Positions 1 through 7,775 of a stretch of DNA of 13,287 nucleotides are shown one piece after another; positions within the stretch are counted from its first letter, which is position 1; every line of letters starts with the position of its first letter. A program made the translations under genes and the position numbers. The stretch lies in IMG/VR virus record IMGVR_UViG_2802429225_000001; one strand, 5' to 3'. This DNA is from a virus. Its lineage: Duplodnaviria > Heunggongvirae > Uroviricota > Caudoviricetes. Under the pieces are notes generated by a model. It saw only the letters and a list, made by a program, of their open reading frames with translations. It ran no database searches and was not told the origin of the DNA.

Positions 1-489
1 TTCGTCCCGTATACCGCCATGCAGGACGATAGCGCCCCGACAGGCCAGCGCATCTGGGAAGAGTTACAGAGCGGCAAATGGGGAGAAATAACCCCGTTCA
101 CCGTCACGCCGGAACTTATCACCGCGGCGAAGGATGCCAAAAAGCGGGAAATCGAGGTGTGGCGCACAGAACAGGAGGCGCAGCCGTTCACGTTCGAATG
201 GAACGGTCGTAGCTGGAATGCTGGCCCCAGCTCACTGGCCCGTATCTATCCGGTGGTAATGGCATCAAAATCCGACACAGCGCGGGACGTTATGACATGG
301 GGTGATGCCGATAATCAGCAAGTGAAGATGTCGATGCCAGAGCTTGAGGAGCTGGCTACAGCTATGGCGCAGGCGCAGGTTAACCGCAATGATGAAATTT
401 ATCGACGTCAGCGACAGATGAAGGACGTGCTGGATGGCCTGAATAATCTTGCCGACATCCGCGCTTTTCAGACTGGAGAGTCAGAATGA
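1..489 (+). CDS. Phage tail-fibre-assembly-like protein, DUF4376-type C-terminal domain; reading frame is open to window position 1, so the 5' end probably lies outside the window (first in-window Met at 19)
   Basis: ORF 19..489 with no in-frame stop between 1 and 18 and no Shine-Dalgarno before Met19. Pattern WR..EA..FTFEWNG..W...W.DADN..V.M...RQRQMK matches my recollection of the DUF4376 signature. Stop overlaps next start (ATGA at 486-489). Confidence 0.5.
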   Translation, partial: FVPYTAMQDDSAPTGQRIWEELQSGKWGEITPFTVTPELITAAKDAKKREIEVWRTEQEAQPFTFEWNGRSWNAGPSSLARIYPVVMASKSDTARDVMTWGDADNQQVKMSMPELEELATAMAQAQVNRNDEIYRRQRQMKDVLDGLNNLADIRAFQTGESE

Positions 490-1199
490 AATGGGAAAAG
501 GCAATTCTGCGTCCGTCAGCCATGCACATTAAATGCTCTGTGGTTTGCCTTCATCCATGGTCAGAAAATACCGGAAACATCAAACCATCGGGGCGTTATC
601 TCAGCCCCGAAAATGCTGTATCTGCACTTTTACCCTATCTGAAAGAAAGCACAGAAAAAGACATTGTGGCGCTGTTATTTTGCACCCCTTCTGCTGGCGA
701 GTTTTTATCACTCGCCAGGCAATTTTCAGGCGCATTTCCGTTGCCGGAGGTGGGACGAATGTCCCGCATGATCTCCAGCCAGCTTTCACTGGCCATCAGC
801 AGAATGCAAATCCCCGCCAGACCGGCAACATCACTTCCGGAACCGATAATGCTGTCGACACAGACCACTCGAAGCATGTCGCTGGCGGCAACCATTGCAC
901 AGGCAGCCACTCCTGCCGCCACATCACCGGAAACATTGTCATCATCGCTGCATCAGTTCATGAATGCGAGAGATAAAGCCTTACAGGAAATCGCTGATCA
1001 GCAGGCCGCACTCCGGCAAAAATTTTGCCCGGTGTGGCGCTTTTGCTACAAGGGAGCTCTTAGCCAGGCTGCAGTGCTGATACAAAAAAACATCCCACAC
1101 CCCGAGTGGGTTTTTACAGCTGTGATGCTGTTCGTCGGCGATAATCTCTCATCACTAAGGGAAGCACTACATGACCCAGATGATTGTCCTTGCGCTTGA
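486..1199 (+). CDS. Hypothetical prophage protein (237 aa), function unknown
   Basis: Longest ORF in region; ATGA start/stop overlap with upstream gene and 29-nt overlap with downstream gene suggest a coupled operon. Rare-codon content is fairly high and the protein is S/T/A/P-rich, so the frame call is moderate. Confidence 0.45.
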   Translation: MKWEKAILRPSAMHIKCSVVCLHPWSENTGNIKPSGRYLSPENAVSALLPYLKESTEKDIVALLFCTPSAGEFLSLARQFSGAFPLPEVGRMSRMISSQLSLAISRMQIPARPATSLPEPIMLSTQTTRSMSLAATIAQAATPAATSPETLSSSLHQFMNARDKALQEIADQQAALRQKFCPVWRFCYKGALSQAAVLIQKNIPHPEWVFTAVMLFVGDNLSSLREALHDPDDCPCA

Positions 1200-1746
1200 C
1201 GGGGAAGCCATTCTGCTGCGCAACATCACCGTCAGCGCCACCATGCAACTACCGGACAAAGATATGTCCGGACAGTCAACCAGCACCACGAGCGCCCAGC
1301 AGGGAAACAAGGCTAAAGAGCTGCGCGTGTCGGGGGTTATTGATTTTAACGATGAAGCTATTCTGACCCGTATTTTTCAGCTTGCGGAGGCAACAGAAAG
1401 CAACGGTGCTAAAAAAACATATCGCATTGCTAACGCTACCGCGAAGGCAATCAATATGCGACAGGGGGTATTTTCTGGTGGCATTGATGCCACGGAACAA
1501 CAGGGAAAAATGCACTGGCAGGTCACCTTTACTCTCAGGGAAAAATTAAGCGTGCCAGAGAAAGCATCAGCACGTAGCGGTTCACAAAAAACCATCGCCA
1601 GACAGCAGACCCAGAATGGCAGCGAACAGGCACCAGACAAAGGCATGAATACGCAAAGTTCGTTCTGGAAAAAAATCAATGATGCCGTTGGCTCTGGTCT
1701 GGATGCTGTTGGCATTGGGAGCGTGAAAGAGGAAGGGAAAACATGA
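1171..1746 (+). CDS. Hypothetical prophage protein (191 aa); possibly a tail-associated protein
   Basis: ORF with AAGGGA Shine-Dalgarno-like sequence about 7 nt before ATG 1171; stop overlaps next start (ATGA at 1743-1746). No motif I can assign confidently. Confidence 0.5.
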   Translation: MTQMIVLALDGEAILLRNITVSATMQLPDKDMSGQSTSTTSAQQGNKAKELRVSGVIDFNDEAILTRIFQLAEATESNGAKKTYRIANATAKAINMRQGVFSGGIDATEQQGKMHWQVTFTLREKLSVPEKASARSGSQKTIARQQTQNGSEQAPDKGMNTQSSFWKKINDAVGSGLDAVGIGSVKEEGKT

Positions 1747-3440
1747 AATTGATACAACGCTGCATGATTAATGGCGAACAGGTGGAAATTGCCGATATAA
1801 ACCTTGTTCTTACCCTGAATGCTGCCGGTCGTGGCTTCATTTCTGTTAACAATCTGTCACCCGAACACAGCCTTGCCGGCGCAATGGTACAAATTGATCT
1901 CGGCCGTGACGGTGAAGCATGGCGCTATTTCTCCGGCTACATTGAGCGCGATCAACCTGCTGAAAATGGCTCACGTCGCCTTTTTATCCGTGAAGCAGCT
2001 GCTGTGCTGGATTTTGATTTCCCTTGCTCCATGCAACACCCGACGTTGCGGGGGGTACTCGATAATCTGGGCAAACAAAGCGGCATCGTTTTCATCACGC
2101 CAGATGCGGATTACGTCAGCATACCAACTCCCTACATCACCCACAGCGGCAGCGGAGCACAACTGCTCAGCCAACTGGGGCGAGCATTCAGTATCAGCGA
2201 TTACGTCTGGCATCCAATGCCGGACGGTTCTGTATTTGTGGGAAGCGCAGCTGATTCACGATTTGCCAGTATTACAATGCCGGATATTCCGCAACAGTAC
2301 ACACTCGGGCAAAGCGGCGGAAACAGCATCGACATCATGTTTATGGAAACTGTGCGACCGGGCGTGAACCTACCGGCCGGGCGCATTACCCGTGTAGCCC
2401 TCAACAACGAGAAAATGACCCTGACATGGGAGCGCCTTACCGCCACGGGTAGCCCTGTTTCCAAATCACCATTACGCAGACAAATGGAAACACAGTTCCC
2501 GGAACTGGCCAGCGGTACTCTTCATACCCGGCTGGCGCGCGTCATTGCCCCAACGGAATCCGTCACCCTGGGCGATGTAGCCGACAGCTTCCGCCCACGC
2601 TACGCCGTTGATGTGCAGTTGCTTGATGAGAACGGCAACGATAAAAACGATACACCTGTTTACCCGGCAGTACCCCTCCCCGTCCCCATGGCTGGCAGTG
2701 AGGCGGGATGTTTTGCCTACCCGCCGGCTGGCACCATCGTGGAAATATCCAACATTGAAGGACGACCGGATAAACCTGTCATCAGGCAAATCTTACCCGC
2801 GGGCCATAACCTGCCTGATGTAAAGCCCGGCGAACAGCTGCAGCAACAGCGCGCAGAAGTGTTTCAGCGCGTCACGACTGACGGAAGCTGGCACAGAGAA
2901 ACCGATCAGCAAATCAGGGAGCATTCAGCCAGGCGAACCATTAACAGCGATCAGGAAGAACGCACAACAACAACCAGAACAACAACAGTACAGGCAAACG
3001 ACATAACCAGCGTTCTGGGAACCAGCAAGCTGATGACAGGCCAGACAGAACACATTACTACTGGCCATTATGCGATCGCAGCCGGTGAGCATATCCAGAT
3101 GGTAGCGCAGGATTTGCTGACTAAACTCAAAGGGGCGACATCCACCATCGAACATAACCTCACCGAAAATGTGGGAGGCCGCAGAACATGCCGGGCGGAC
3201 GGCGGCCTGGAATTTACCGCCCCGACTGTATTTATCGGTCGCGGTGGCTCACGGGAAAAATCCGGACTTAATCTGCTGACGTTGTTGATTGATATTCTGG
3301 ATCTGGTTCAGTTGCTGGCCACACACACTGCAAACCATACCCATAGCAATACTGGCGCACCAACAAACAGCAGCGAACTTGCCACAGACGCCCAACAGGC
3401 TACGAGCCTGCGCGAAAAATACGGTGACCTTATCGCCTGA
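1743..3440 (+). CDS. Prophage structural-type protein (565 aa); possible baseplate hub (gpD/gp27/VgrG-like N-terminal region) with Thr-rich linker and His-cluster C-terminal region
   Basis: Long ORF, translationally coupled to upstream gene. N-terminal segment (AWRYFSGYIER ... LRGVLDNLGKQSGIV) resembles the conserved hub motif of gpD/VgrG proteins as I recall it; C-terminal part has ERTTTTRTTTV and HTANHTHSNTG (HxH-type cluster as in spike tips). Functional call is by-eye only. Confidence 0.6.
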   Translation: MKLIQRCMINGEQVEIADINLVLTLNAAGRGFISVNNLSPEHSLAGAMVQIDLGRDGEAWRYFSGYIERDQPAENGSRRLFIREAAAVLDFDFPCSMQHPTLRGVLDNLGKQSGIVFITPDADYVSIPTPYITHSGSGAQLLSQLGRAFSISDYVWHPMPDGSVFVGSAADSRFASITMPDIPQQYTLGQSGGNSIDIMFMETVRPGVNLPAGRITRVALNNEKMTLTWERLTATGSPVSKSPLRRQMETQFPELASGTLHTRLARVIAPTESVTLGDVADSFRPRYAVDVQLLDENGNDKNDTPVYPAVPLPVPMAGSEAGCFAYPPAGTIVEISNIEGRPDKPVIRQILPAGHNLPDVKPGEQLQQQRAEVFQRVTTDGSWHRETDQQIREHSARRTINSDQEERTTTTRTTTVQANDITSVLGTSKLMTGQTEHITTGHYAIAAGEHIQMVAQDLLTKLKGATSTIEHNLTENVGGRRTCRADGGLEFTAPTVFIGRGGSREKSGLNLLTLLIDILDLVQLLATHTANHTHSNTGAPTNSSELATDAQQATSLREKYGDLIA

Positions 3441-3479
3441 TCACCGGGCATAAAGCCCCCCATAAACGCCCCATCACGC

Positions 3480-3508
3480 AACGCACGGCTCCGGTCGTGC
3501 GTTTTCAT
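3480..3508 (+). terminator. Candidate intrinsic terminator after the 565-aa gene
   Basis: Stem ACGCACG (3481-3487) / CGTGCGT (3496-3502), 8-nt loop, followed by TTTTC; lies 40 nt after the stop at 3440. Confidence 0.4.
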
Positions 3509-3983
3509 ATCTGCCACCTGATTAATGCGTTCTGCGTGCCATTCCGGCGCTGTATGCGCACACCACGTAAACGGTGTGACGTAAAGCGTGAGGTGACGTA
3601 AACCGCGCTACCCCCTCCAACCCGCGGGTTTTGTGTCGAAACACTTTTTCAGTTTTCTGCCGTGCAAAAATGACCGCCAGCCCGCGCAGCAACTGAGGGA
3701 AAAGCGAAGATCTGAAATTTCACGTTTTGAAATTTTTTGCAGTTTTCAGAGAGGTTTTTACGATCGCACAAATGGCAGGGGCAATAAAACTGCATGATAT
3801 TAAAAGAGTTTTCATGCTTTACGTGGGACAAGACACGATCGCGAAAGGATCGCGTTAAACAACTCTCAAACAAAGAAGCCAGACGCAGCGCGGCCTGCGT
3901 AAAATCAAGAGCCAGAATTAAACTGAAAAAAGGATCAATACCACGCCTCGATCGCGCATGACGATCTATGCAGCAACATGACG

Positions 3984-4050
3984 AAAAAAAACCGGCGCGA
4001 ACGCCGGCGGAAGCATGTATCAAATGCGTGACTGAATAATGTCTGCGGTC
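3984..4050 (-). ncRNA. Candidate small RNA (about 67 nt) with its own promoter and intrinsic terminator, divergent from the hok-like promoter
   Basis: On the minus strand: -35 TTGAGG (4079-4084), 16-nt spacer, extended -10 TGaTATAAA (4057-4065), then about 67 nt ending in hairpin CCGGCG-UUCG-CGCCGG (3992-4007) followed by eight U (A-run 3984-3991 on plus strand). No convincing ORF or Shine-Dalgarno inside. Confidence 0.35.
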
Positions 4051-4088
4051 GGGAATTTTATATCAGAAGACTGACAGGCCTCAACGGA

Positions 4089-4118
4089 TTGAAACAAGGG
4101 AAAAAACCAGGCTAGAAT
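4089..4118 (+). promoter_or_regulatory. Candidate sigma70 promoter of the hok-like mRNA
   Basis: TTGAAA (4089-4094), 18-nt spacer, TAGAAT (4113-4118); predicted start near 4125, exactly where the 5' element complementary to the 3' end begins. Confidence 0.45.
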
Positions 4119-4168
4119 TCGCGCGGGTGCCTTTCGGCTGATGGCTGGAGGGAATACCTGAAGGCCGG

Positions 4169-4351
4169 ATGTGGAAAGGCCCCGGAAAACATTTTTGTTT
4201 AACCGAGGCCCTAACCGTCTACCTAGCAAGTGATAGGTTAGCGCCTCCCCGAAAAAGGAGCAAGCGCTATGTCGCAAAAATCGCTTACAGCCATCACGTT
4301 CTGTGTGACGGCAATCCTCATCATCTGGATGCTGCACGGCTCGCTGTGTGA
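4169..4351 (+). CDS. mok-like overlapping reading frame (60 aa) upstream of and overlapping the hok-like toxin gene
   Basis: ORF starts at ATG 4169 (GAAGG 4160-4164 upstream), is in a different frame from the toxin ORF and ends inside it, as mok does in hok/sok loci. Protein shows no recognisable domain, so the role is by position only. Confidence 0.3.
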   Translation: MWKGPGKHFCLTEALTVYLASDRLAPPRKRSKRYVAKIAYSHHVLCDGNPHHLDAARLAV

Positions 4352-4409
4352 AATACGGATGAGCTTCTGGGGAGCGGAGTTTGCGGCGTTCTTACAGTGT
4401 AAGCAGTAA
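4269..4409 (+). CDS. hok: Hok/Gef-family type I toxin (46 aa small membrane peptide)
   Basis: ATG 4269 preceded by AAGGAG (4255-4260, 8-nt spacer). Translation MSQKSLTAITFCVTAILIIWMLHGSLCEIRMSFWGAEFAAFLQCKQ has a hydrophobic N-terminal helix plus the SLCEIR ... E.AAF motif shared with Hok (R1) and HokA. Below the size cut-off of the supplied ORF track. Confidence 0.7.
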   Translation: MSQKSLTAITFCVTAILIIWMLHGSLCEIRMSFWGAEFAAFLQCKQ

Positions 4410-4495
4410 GGAAACCGCGACGGGGGAGTAATCCCCCGTCAATCGGTTGCTAAGGTTGGTCGAAACGGCACCCTATCTCACAGACATGAACAACA

Positions 4496-4530
4496 AACCC
4501 GCAGCGTAAAAACTGCGGGTTTTCTTTTTG
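4496..4530 (+). terminator. Intrinsic terminator of the hok-like transcript
   Basis: Stem AACCCGCAG (4496-4504) / CTGCGGGTT (4513-4521), loop CGTAAAAA, followed by TTTCTTTTTGTTG. Confidence 0.6.
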
Positions 4531-4579
4531 TTGCCCTCACAAATGAGGGTGACACTATTCGTAAGCAATAGGCATGACA

Positions 4580-4627
4580 GATCGATGCAATAAATCCGAT
4601 CGATAAAAACGATCGGTTTGTTATCAT
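4580..4627 (+). promoter_or_regulatory. Regulatory region of the com-methyltransferase operon: three clustered GATC sites plus candidate extended -10 promoter
   Basis: GATC at 4580-4583, 4598-4601 and 4611-4614 (two within ATCGAT); TGtTATCAT extended -10 at 4619-4627 with no good -35 (the -35 position coincides with a GATC). Resembles the layout upstream of Mu mom. Confidence 0.4.
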
Positions 4628-4661
4628 ATCGGCAGCAGTAACCACACAAGAGGTGCCGCAA

Positions 4662-4859
4662 ATGACGCAAAATGTACGATGCAAAAATTGCAACAAACTA
4701 CTTGCCCGCGCCTCATTTCACTACATTGAAATAAAATGTCCGCGCTGCAAAACACTTAACCAGATAACGAGAGCCATTGAGCACCCCACACGCATGAGGA
4801 GTTATGACCGTGGGGATCGCAACCCAGCATCAACCAGTACATACACCGGAACACACTAA
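4662..4859 (+). CDS. com: Com-like zinc-finger translational regulator (65 aa from ATG 4662; the ORF track starts 3 codons earlier at GTG 4653)
   Basis: AAGAGGTG Shine-Dalgarno (4648-4655) 6 nt before ATG 4662. Protein MTQNVRCKNCNKLLARASFHYIEIKCPRCK ... EHPT carries the CxxC ... CxxC motif and surrounding residues of phage Mu Com. Confidence 0.8.
   Translation: MTQNVRCKNCNKLLARASFHYIEIKCPRCKTLNQITRAIEHPTRMRSYDRGDRNPASTSTYTGTH
4784..4815 (+). promoter_or_regulatory. Stem-loop sequestering the methyltransferase ribosome-binding site and start codon (candidate Com-responsive translational operator)
   Basis: CCCCAC (4784-4789) pairs with GTGGGG (4810-4815); the 20-nt loop holds GAGGAG (4796-4801) and ATG 4804. 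Lies inside the 3' end of com. Confidence 0.4.
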
Positions 4860-5610
4860 GATTTACCAGATTGACAATGCCACGCTCTGTCGTGGAAATG
4901 CACTGGAAATATTGCCGCTGATTGAGCCAGAAAGCATTGATGCCTTAATCACTGACCCGCCTTACAGTTCGGGTGCGACACACAAGGCCGGACGCACCAA
5001 CCAGGGCAGTCATGCAAAATATCTGAACGGCGAGAACCTTCACCGCTTTGATGGGTTCGCGGGTGAGAACATGGACGCCCGTTCGTGGGCTTACTGGACA
5101 CAATTATGGATGGCACAGGCACTACGTGCAGTCAGGTCGGGCGGTTATGCCCTGGTATTTACTGACTGGCGACAACTGCCTGCTTTAACCGATGCGTTTC
5201 AGGCCAGCGGTTTTACATGGCGTGGAATCATTGCGTGGAACAAAGGAAAGGGGTCACGAACACCCCATACGGGGTATTTCCGGCATCAGTGCGAATACAT
5301 CGTCTGGGGCAGCAAAGGCCATTTAGGTAAATCGCCTTCGGGTCCGTTCGACGGCTGCATGACGTTCCCGGTTATCCCGTCAAAGAAAATGCACCCGACC
5401 GGAAAACCAGAAGAACTAATGGCAGAGCTGGTCAGAACTGCGAATAGTGGCGGAACAGTCCTTGATCCTTTTATGGGGTCAGGGACAACGGGTGTGGCTG
5501 CACTGAAAGCAGGGCGAAAATTTATTGGTATAGAAACCAGTGATCATTATTTTGAGGTAGCGGCGCAGCGGCTTCGGGGGACTATTACCACAACCATTTC
5601 GACTACATAA
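4804..5610 (+). CDS. DNA amino-methyltransferase, beta class (N6-adenine or N4-cytosine; N6_N4_Mtase type), 268 aa
   Basis: Motif IV DPPY (LITDPPYSS) precedes HPTGKP and motif I DPFMGSGTT, the beta-class order (IV before I). Start overlaps the com 3' end out of frame (ATG 4804; alternative GTG 4810). Confidence 0.85.
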   Translation: MTVGIATQHQPVHTPEHTKIYQIDNATLCRGNALEILPLIEPESIDALITDPPYSSGATHKAGRTNQGSHAKYLNGENLHRFDGFAGENMDARSWAYWTQLWMAQALRAVRSGGYALVFTDWRQLPALTDAFQASGFTWRGIIAWNKGKGSRTPHTGYFRHQCEYIVWGSKGHLGKSPSGPFDGCMTFPVIPSKKMHPTGKPEELMAELVRTANSGGTVLDPFMGSGTTGVAALKAGRKFIGIETSDHYFEVAAQRLRGTITTTISTT

Positions 5611-6349: not shown

Positions 6350-7775
6350 TAATGCCAGTCAGTTAAGCAACTGACTGGCTCTTTTTCGGGGCTGTGGGGG
6401 ATTTCCAGGGTCTCTCCTTTACCACTCTCGGGAAGGCCCTTTCCCTTCTTGTCGGTAATTTCACTAGTTGTCCCATACTTGCAAGATCGCGCATCAGCTC
6501 CGGTATACGTCCCGGTGAAGCGCCCTGCAATGTCATCAGCATTCTCATCACCATTCCGCATGATTCTGAGAAACTCAGTTGATTCGGCCAGTAACCTTTC
6601 AGATGTTCTGCCATTTTAATCATCTGATATCTCACCAGATTATAAGCCAGTAAGACACCCCATAGCTCTTGCTCCACAAGCTCCGGCTTTTTACTTCTCA
6701 GCGTCAGCCTGCTCAGTTGCATCGTCTGTTTTATCTCCCTGTATCCCAGTTCGATTTCCCAGCGATGACTGTACAGATCCGCCATTTCTCCTCCGGGGAA
6801 GCGCATGGCGTCCGTCATCGACGTCAGCAGATGGCAGACTTTTCCTTTGCGCGTCACGGTCAGCAGGCGGGCTGTCACCTCATTTCCCAGTCCCGGCCAC
6901 TTTTTTCGTGCCTGCGGGCTGGTTTTCAGCTTCACCAGATGATCGCCTTTACCCAGTTTTCTGATCTCTTCATATTGCGCTCCCTTTCTGAGAGGGATCA
7001 TCCAGTGGCGGTGTTCTCCCGCCTGGCTCCAGGCATTTAACAGTCCCAGTGAGTAATAACCTTTATCCATTAACGTCAGGGTGTTATCGCCGGTTTGTTC
7101 TATAAGTTGCTCAGCAAGCTCATTTTCGCTGTTCTTCATCGTGCCGAAAGCTGCAGCCGTCAGCAGATGGCTGGTCAGTTCCATCTGGCAGACCATTTTG
7201 ACCTGCGGGTAGAGCGCCGGGTTCCCGGCATGTGTCTGGCGGGGGAAGGCTGCATCGTTCTCTGGTGTATCCGGTGTGCGCCAGAACACACCATCGATGG
7301 CCAGCAGGGTCAGGCCGCACCAGTGCGGATGCGGCGTGGCGTTATGCCAGAGCTGCGCTGTTTTCGTGAACACGCGGCGGACAGCCTCACTTCCCAGGCG
7401 CTGGCGGGCCTGAATAACGGCACTGGGGGCAACGAAGGGGCGATTGCCCGGTAGCATGATGTCCAGGCGATTCACAATCTGGTGAAGAGGTTCTTTACGC
7501 TCAAGCGCCATGCCAACAATACACCAGACCATCATTTCGAGGGGAAGACGGCGCTTGCGTAGCGTTACAGTACCTGATTCGGCAAGGCAACGAGAGATGA
7601 GTTCGGGGTCGAGGTAATCCCCCAGAGAAGTCAGTGGGTTACGCAGAGAATCGTAACGGGATACCAAATCAAGTGCCTGTCCAATGAGCATAAAAAAATC
7701 CGGAAACGAGTGAGCGTTTCCGGATTCTTACACAGCCACTGGATCGGTCAACTGATCCTTAACTGATCGGCATTA
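6350..7775 (-). mobile_element. IS4 insertion sequence, complete copy (1426 bp) with 18-bp imperfect terminal inverted repeats
   Basis: Ends TAATGCCAGTCAGTTAAG (6350-6367) and, reverse-complemented, TAATGCCGATCAGTTAAG (7758-7775), 16/18 match. Length 1426 bp and a single 442-aa transposase ORF match IS4 as I know it; flanked by the 13-bp direct repeat. Confidence 0.9.
6363..7691 (-). CDS. insG: IS4 transposase (DDE family, InsG-type), 442 aa
   Basis: Full-length ORF inside the IS. Start ATG at 7689-7691 is immediately preceded on the minus strand by an 11-bp stem (7698-7708 / 7715-7725) and a U-run, a typical IS read-through barrier. Confidence 0.9.

Follow-up and report, generated by a model that had tools for sequence, protein, structure and literature searches.

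A predicted Dam-methylation-sensitive OxyR operator over the promoter of a prophage com–methylase operon

Does a prophage-borne com–methylase operon carry, over its own promoter, a switch that is set by the methylation state of the host? The question is raised by three closely spaced GATC sites in front of com in a window of 13,287 nucleotides, the whole stretch of DNA analysed here, which is E. coli chromosome with the right end of a P2/HP1-family prophage adjoining raiA. In phage Mu, the toxic DNA-modification gene mom is placed under stacked controls, namely Dam/OxyR, the activator C and the translational regulator Com. A sequence-only reading of the present locus had drawn the analogy with Mu and predicted activator-dependent expression from the same arrangement. 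Dam/OxyR control of Mu mom and com–methylase modules in Mu-like prophages are already known (PMC3378877, PMC3299994), and our literature search found no paper on this P2/HP1-family cassette or its promoter.

Cassette layout and predicted translational control

Genes for DUF4376 tail-fibre-like, HP1 ORF34-type baseplate and 565-aa baseplate proteins together occupy positions 19–3440 of the window, and an unannotated stretch of ~830 bp separates the baseplate gene from hok. The hok/gef toxin gene (4269–4409) is followed by a strong terminator, com and the overlapping methylase gene. A terminator scan placed the Rho-independent terminator of the hok/gef transcript at 4495–4522 on the plus strand, with a 10-bp stem containing six GC pairs and a T-run; because this terminator insulates com from upstream transcription, com needs a promoter of its own. 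Host genes on the 3' side of the prophage comprise raiA, an IS4 copy, bamD, rluD, yfiH and clpB. The P2-like phage Chuche harbors the same hok–com–methylase cassette between ogr and the integrase gene, directly after ogr. Within the unannotated region 5' of hok, a search of positions 3441–4130 against the phage collection gave no match; a small hydrophobic ORF of 31 aa (MKTLLISCSFIAPAICAIV...) lies there on the minus strand (3720–3815) and could encode a second small membrane or toxin peptide.

The first gene of the operon, com (4662–4859, plus strand), is preceded by a Shine–Dalgarno GAGG at 4650–4653 and encodes a 65-aa zinc-ribbon protein (Pfam Zn_ribbon_Com, E = 1e-11; PHROG gpCom), which is predicted to act as translational activator of the downstream methylase. 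The second gene, overlapping com, encodes a beta-class N6/N4 DNA methyltransferase (4804–5610, plus strand; Pfam N6_N4_Mtase, PF01555, E = 4e-32) with a DPPY motif near the N-terminus and FxGxG near the C-terminus, and its PDB relatives are CcrM and DpnA-type enzymes. NCBIfam contained no family at curated cut-off for the methylase, and searches for its target specificity in PDB, NCBIfam and among homologues returned only generic 'site-specific DNA methyltransferase' names.

Translation of the methylase appears to be guarded by an RNA hairpin of the form CCCCAC...GUGGGG (4784–4815, plus strand), with a computed folding energy of −16.6 kcal/mol (z = −2.2). The hairpin encloses both the methylase Shine–Dalgarno (4796–4801) and its AUG (4804), and CCCCAC and GUGGGG flank the methylase start in a Yersinia relative (L227) too. 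It is predicted to form a translation-inhibitory structure that Com opens, and the GAGCAnCCCAC that flanks it is shared with Mu. Such a layout would agree with Com freeing methylase translation in the way described for mom (PMC3378877, PMC3299994). Com-type translational control has also been proposed for the com–methyltransferase modules of Mu-like prophages (PMC3299994). In the Hia5, Hin1523 and Nme1821 modules (Drozdz et al. 2012), com precedes an adenine methyltransferase that replaces mom (PMC3299994); unlike the present enzyme, these belong to a different class (PMC5778455) and reside in Mu-like prophages of Haemophilus and Neisseria.

Homologues of the methylase also occur without com (L233/L234 and L231/L232, 80% and 61% identical, respectively). 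One com-less homologue belongs to a P2-like prophage, where it comes immediately after an extended Ogr_Delta gene across a short gap that contains no GATC; the other is embedded in the holin–lysozyme lysis cassette of a Mu-like prophage of Salmonella that carries Mor. The methylase has been recruited under at least three control schemes.

A GATC triple in common with phage Mu

The positions reported earlier for the three sites, 4580, 4598 and 4611 with spacings of 18 and 13 bp, proved exact when the sequence was re-read. All three are Dam targets: GATC-1 (4580–4583, methylatable A at 4581) is located at about −54 from the predicted start, GATC-2 (4598–4601, A at 4599) at about −36, where it overlaps the −35 hexamer, and GATC-3 (4611–4614, A at 4612) at about −23 in the promoter spacer. 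GATC-2 and GATC-3 form the dyad CCGATCG-N7-CGATCGG (4596–4616). There are 61 GATCs in the window and three triples within 35 bp where 0.23 are expected (P = 0.006), and the exact 18/13 spacing arose in 0.07% of dinucleotide-preserving shuffles of the window. As the window holds three such triples, one of them in an IS4 end, clustering by itself is weak evidence; the argument is accordingly built on the spacing, the resemblance to Mu and the conservation.

Of the two other triples, one, at 3933/3950/3963 (spacing 17 and 13 bp; 3933–3966), lies in the unannotated ~830 bp beside a minus-strand terminator-like hairpin (~3980–4010) and is common to four relatives (L002, L039, L040 and L063); it is GC-rich between its sites, and its match to the OxyR consensus stays below 12/20. 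The other, at 7742/7754/7765 (7742–7768), is positioned just past the start of the IS4 transposase ORF (6363–7691, minus strand), in apparent IS4 terminal sequence, which suggests Dam-sensitive transposition signals as in other IS elements.

The control GATCs of Mu mom (860/878/891 in L003) have the same 18/13 spacing as those in the window. ATAG (4568–4571 here), 8 bp 5' of GATC-1, is invariant among the window, Mu and the relatives L063 and L069. Alignment with Mu and two diverged relatives further revealed invariant GATCGA at site 1, CGATCG at site 2 and GATC at site 3, as well as much of com and a GAGCAnCCCAC just 5' of the second gene; AT at 4590–4591, an OxyR-consensus position, is conserved in the Mu alignment as well. 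The resemblance extends to the operon as a whole, since zinc-ribbon com is the first gene in both, the two Com proteins are 60% identical over 42 residues and a stem covers the start of the second gene in each. On these sequence comparisons, the triple is most simply explained as a homologue of the Mu Dam/OxyR element. The analogy drawn by the sequence-only reading is thus borne out by the 18/13 spacing, ATAG-N8-GATCGA, com and GAGCAnCCCAC, together with the 15/20 OxyR-consensus match and the GATC conservation described below. The two operons differ in that the second gene here encodes a beta-class methyltransferase where Mu has mom, and in that the host phage belongs to the P2/HP1 family whereas Mu is transposable.

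The wider distribution of the element was assessed in a Com-profile sample of viral contigs. Both ATAG-N8 and the 18/13 triple are found in the Mu-type com–mom loci (L290–L311) and in L288, only GATC-1 and GATC-2 remain in a second Mu-like lineage, and the three non-enterobacterial com loci in the sample (L312–L314) have no GATC triple. From this distribution the triple appears to be ancestral to the enterobacterial com operon and not a coincidence.

Among 41 related loci, 36 retain all three GATCs with exact spacing. In one of the remaining loci (L039) GATC-2 is mutated to GAAC, and the other four (L006, L066, L067 and L068) share a clean 31-bp deletion from GATC-1 to GATC-3 (aligned positions 4580–4610), which apparently arose by recombination between GATCGAT repeats. 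The deletion alleles keep one GATC and an intact −10, and hence amount to the same promoter in operator-less form. GATC-2 is lost only in these five loci, while GATC-3 is found in every related locus; in a Salmonella relative only GATC-2 and GATC-3 remain. Given that 5/41 loci have lost one or two GATCs and that the Salmonella relative keeps two, the operator is not essential to the cassette. Column-wise variation was compared over 18 distinct intact sequences, among them L063, L069 (whose methylase is 74% identical) and Yersinia L227 (73%): the 12 GATC columns are all constant, whereas 20 of the 50 other columns vary (Fisher P = 0.005). In L063, L069 and L227 the bases between the GATCs change and the spacing stays exact. 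The GATCs thus appear, by this comparison, to be under purifying selection.

These patterns bear on the reading that the triple is a relic, brought in with com from a Mu-like ancestor and functionless in this prophage. Loss of sites in five loci and the reduction to two GATCs in both the Salmonella relative and the second Mu-like lineage would be in keeping with such decay, but the GATC columns are invariant out to Yersinia while their flanks vary, the spacing survives turnover of the intervening bases, and the 7-bp geometry between GATC-3 and the −10 is kept even in Salmonella L229. We therefore regard a functionless relic as very improbable.

Promoter and predicted OxyR operator

A promoter scan detected a single sigma-70-like site within 4200–5000, in which a −35-like hexamer TCGATA (4600–4605, plus strand; 4/6) is joined through a 16-bp spacer to the extended −10 TGtTATCAT (4619–4627, plus strand), made up of TG at 4619–4620 and TATCAT at 4622–4627 (5/6), with a predicted start at ~4634–4635. 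The extended −10 had been noted earlier in front of com and is present exactly there; the accompanying statement that no −35 hexamer exists was only partly right, as the scan finds a 4/6 hexamer at 16 bp that overlaps GATC-2. Among the relatives, TG and TATCAT are invariant whereas all four bases occur at the position between them, as would be expected if the extended −10 is functional. Salmonella L229 has TATAAT as its hexamer, likewise 7 bp from GATC-3.

It is at the promoter that the locus departs from Mu. In Mu, 41 bp lie between GATC-3 and the −10 and hold the C-activator box (ATAACC...) and a T6 run, whereas the distance here is 7 bp and no ATAACC box occurs upstream of the −10; with so short a distance there is no C box left, and the operator lies over the −35 and spacer. 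The operator is accordingly 34 bp closer to the −10 than in Mu and overlaps the −35, and the weak Mu promoter with its T6 run is missing, a natural TGn extended −10 standing in its place. The claim that the arrangement is the same as in Mu does not survive this comparison, given the 7 versus 41 bp to the −10, the missing C box and an OxyR site directly over the −35 and spacer.

The configuration resembles that of the Mu mutant tin7, in which a T-to-G change at −14 creates a TGn extended −10 and renders Pmom C-independent (PMC3378877). Here, TTTGTTATCAT parallels the tin7 sequence TTTGTTAAGAT, and the TTTGTTA context gives the TGn extended −10. Whereas tin7 is a laboratory mutant that still has its C box, the configuration in the window is wild type and conserved in relatives. 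A P2 Ogr/Delta-dependent late promoter was considered and rejected, because the TGT-N12-ACA dyad near −55 is absent; positions 4500–4640 contain no match to this Ogr-type box, even with one mismatch. The earlier expectation of activator dependence is thereby left without support: with the Mu C box absent, a 4/6 −35 at 16 bp, a TGn, a 5/6 −10 and no Ogr box, the promoter probably needs no activator.

A 9-mer, TAACCACAC, at 4639–4647 is identical to one in the C-box region of Mu (L003 909–917). In the window the 9-mer is placed 3' of the −10, within the predicted 5' UTR and 15 bp short of the com ATG. L069 and L227 have not kept it, and it may have survived from an ancestral C box.

Could the promoter nevertheless be a weak late promoter of the Mu kind, one that requires a C/Mor-like or Ogr-like activator in addition to Dam methylation and fires only in lytic growth? 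The location of the cassette at the end of the late/tail region, and directly after ogr in Chuche, would suit such a promoter, as would the −35 of merely 4/6, the 9-mer from the Mu C-box region and the reported silence of related prophage methylases in lysogens (PMC5778455, PMC4659465). However, the position of the C box in Mu, between GATC-3 and the −10, is deleted here, the 9-mer lies on the wrong side of the −10 and is not kept in L069 and L227, and the Ogr box is absent from the interval searched. TGn, TATCAT and the 16-bp spacer together reproduce the activator-independent configuration of tin7 (PMC3378877), and the promoter is identical in HP1-like and P2-like prophage backbones. On balance, dependence on a phage activator seems unlikely.

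OxyR binding was scored over the 20 specified positions of ATAGnTnnnAnCTAT-N7-ATAGnTnnnAnCTAT in 37-bp registers, a consensus that is degenerate. Two overlapping registers, 4568–4604 and 4577–4613, each match at 15/20, about 5 sd above background (mean 4.9, sd 1.9), and a weaker third register (4590–4626) reaches 13/20; neither the window nor the 41-kb locus L002 has another position that reaches 14/20. The equivalent registers score 13/20 in Mu and 14/20 in agn43, and relatives of the window keep 13–15/20. Together, the two stronger registers define a predicted OxyR operator of 46 bp (4568–4613). The register at 4577 is the one that in agn43 holds all three GATCs, with the GATC-2/GATC-3 dyad forming one half-site, and it covers the whole −35 and spacer; register 4568–4604 is centred near −48 and ends near −30. 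From this degenerate consensus we infer OxyR binding to 4568–4613, which would serve as a Dam-methylation-sensitive operator. At Mu, discrimination of methylation state by OxyR is credited to Bolker & Kahmann 1989 and Hattman & Sun 1997, as cited in PMC3378877.

The GATCs might also act without OxyR, either because methylation or hemimethylation of GATC-2 and GATC-3 alters RNA polymerase binding directly, as at IS10, or because SeqA binds the cluster in its hemimethylated state, in both cases tying expression to passage of the replication fork. The placement of GATC-2 over the −35 and of GATC-3 in the spacer is compatible with this, as is the distance of 31 bp, or about three helical turns, between GATC-1 and GATC-3; a GATC cluster also marks the IS4 end, and Dam control of IS10, Tn5 and others is cited in PMC4659465. 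Conservation, however, reaches beyond the GATCs to the OxyR-consensus positions ATAG (4568–4571) and AT (4590–4591), the element matches that of Mu, for which OxyR discrimination of methylation has been published (as cited in PMC3378877), and a direct effect on RNA polymerase would leave GATC-1, at −54, without a function. We consider an OxyR-free mechanism quite unlikely.

Two well-described systems help to place the predicted operator. In agn43 (flu), a single OxyR site contains three GATCs spaced 19/13, operator and promoter region overlap, and regulation requires no further activator (PMC2909390). The in silico layout here is of this type, with a single predicted operator holding three GATCs over the −35 and spacer and neither a C nor an Ogr box. 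The two differ in that the agn43 operator starts around the annotated isrC transcript start (L004 518) and runs downstream, whereas the operator here lies upstream of and over the −35, and in that phase variation has been demonstrated for agn43 and is a possibility for the present locus. The gtr operon (P22, Salmonella) is, like the cassette, a prophage accessory operon with its own promoter. Its OxyR half-sites, 22 bp apart, carry GATCs; the OxyR(BC) site, in which a GATC falls at −33, lies over the promoter and represses, Dam-methylated probes are not bound by OxyR, and at the upstream AB site OxyR activates (PMC2909390). In contrast to the window, gtr has four GATCs in two pairs, the extra activating upstream site and glycosyltransferases as cargo. 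In its layout the locus resembles agn43 or gtr OxyR(BC) more closely than it does Mu Pmom.

These comparisons also inform the sign of regulation. A GATC at −33 in gtr OxyR(BC) goes with repression, and GATC-2 here lies at about −36; on that ground repression would be expected. The opposite reading takes OxyR as an activator over or upstream of the −35, so that peroxide stress would induce the com–methylase operon as long as its GATCs carry no methylation. OxyR sites that abut the −35 are typical of OxyR-activated promoters (katG, ahpC and oxyS), and register 4568–4604, centred near −48 and ending near −30, resembles these. The sign could therefore reverse under oxidative stress. The activating upstream AB site of gtr (PMC2909390) offers a further precedent, but OxyR is a repressor at both Mu mom and agn43, which have this GATC architecture, the promoter-overlapping gtr site represses (PMC2909390), and the agn43-equivalent register 4577–4613 covers the entire −35 and spacer. 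Activation by OxyR is, in our estimate, the most improbable of the alternatives.

Regulatory model, spread and implications

Sequence anatomy, similarity to Mu, conservation and the consensus match together favour, with fair probability, a model in which the operator is joined directly to a sigma-70 promoter that works without an activator, OxyR occludes this promoter by binding the unmethylated GATCs, and Com unlocks translation of the methylase. When the GATCs are unmethylated, an OxyR tetramer would span ~−66 to −21 and block RNA polymerase; when they are Dam-methylated, OxyR could not bind and com–methylase mRNA would be made from the predicted start. A second lock would then operate at translation, where Com is proposed to open hairpin 4784–4815, in which the methylase ribosome-binding site and AUG are buried. 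Since operator and promoter have no phage activator site between them, transcription would be decided by Dam/OxyR competition alone. The predicted logic is that of agn43 and gtr OxyR(BC), with an OFF lock in dam− cells, and in dam+ lysogens heritable ON and OFF phases would be possible. The reported lysogen silence of related prophage methylases would be unexpected if the promoter were freely active in dam+ cells, unless the OxyR or the Com lock suffices.

The most far-reaching form of this model is a 'methylase phasevarion', in which Dam/OxyR competition would confer bistable, heritable com–methylase expression on lysogens, in the manner of agn43; we put it forward tentatively, as an extension with a modest chance of being right. 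If it holds, a subpopulation of ~3% of E. coli strains would have a second, prophage-encoded methylome. Should the methylase, in addition, act on adenines within or adjoining GATC, its ON state would become self-reinforcing, with one epigenetic mark writing another; this feedback idea stays speculative because the relatives of the methylase bear only generic names. It is stated as unknown in PMC2909390 whether a Mu-type operator can drive phase variation, and the present locus, if it switches, would constitute a natural test, for which the natural 31-bp operator-deletion alleles provide ready-made controls.

With a 1.3-kb query and a minimum coverage of 80%, the cassette was detected in 170 of 5,426 complete E. 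coli genomes, and it occurs in Salmonella and Yersinia as well. If it switches, it would represent a common, unrecognised source of methylome heterogeneity. The Dam/OxyR and Com layers travel together as a portable cassette, which has here entered an unrelated phage family and been coupled to a different enzyme; with the phage-specific activator layer shed, the sole transcriptional input should be the methylation state of the host. What is new is this transfer of operator and Com lock to another phage family and enzyme with loss of the activator layer, which predicts agn43-like behaviour. One of the deletion loci, L006 (NZ_JBQPOM010000071.1), is labelled Vagococcus sp., a Gram-positive organism, and carries the enterobacterial cassette at 90% protein identity; the label likely reflects contamination or a mislabelled assembly.

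Viral contigs were also scanned for the spaced motif GATCG-N13-GATCG-N8-GATCG. Among the matches listed, com operons made up 10 of 80, and most of those listed were chance occurrences in GC-rich contigs. AT-rich 18/13 triples scoring 12–13/20 on the OxyR consensus were found in four com-less phage contigs (L185, L148, L146 and L138). The triple in L185 (~1510–1545, minus orientation) lies directly 5' of an ORF for a Dam-like (D12-class) methyltransferase, and operators of the Dam/OxyR type may, on this sequence evidence, control other phage methylases.
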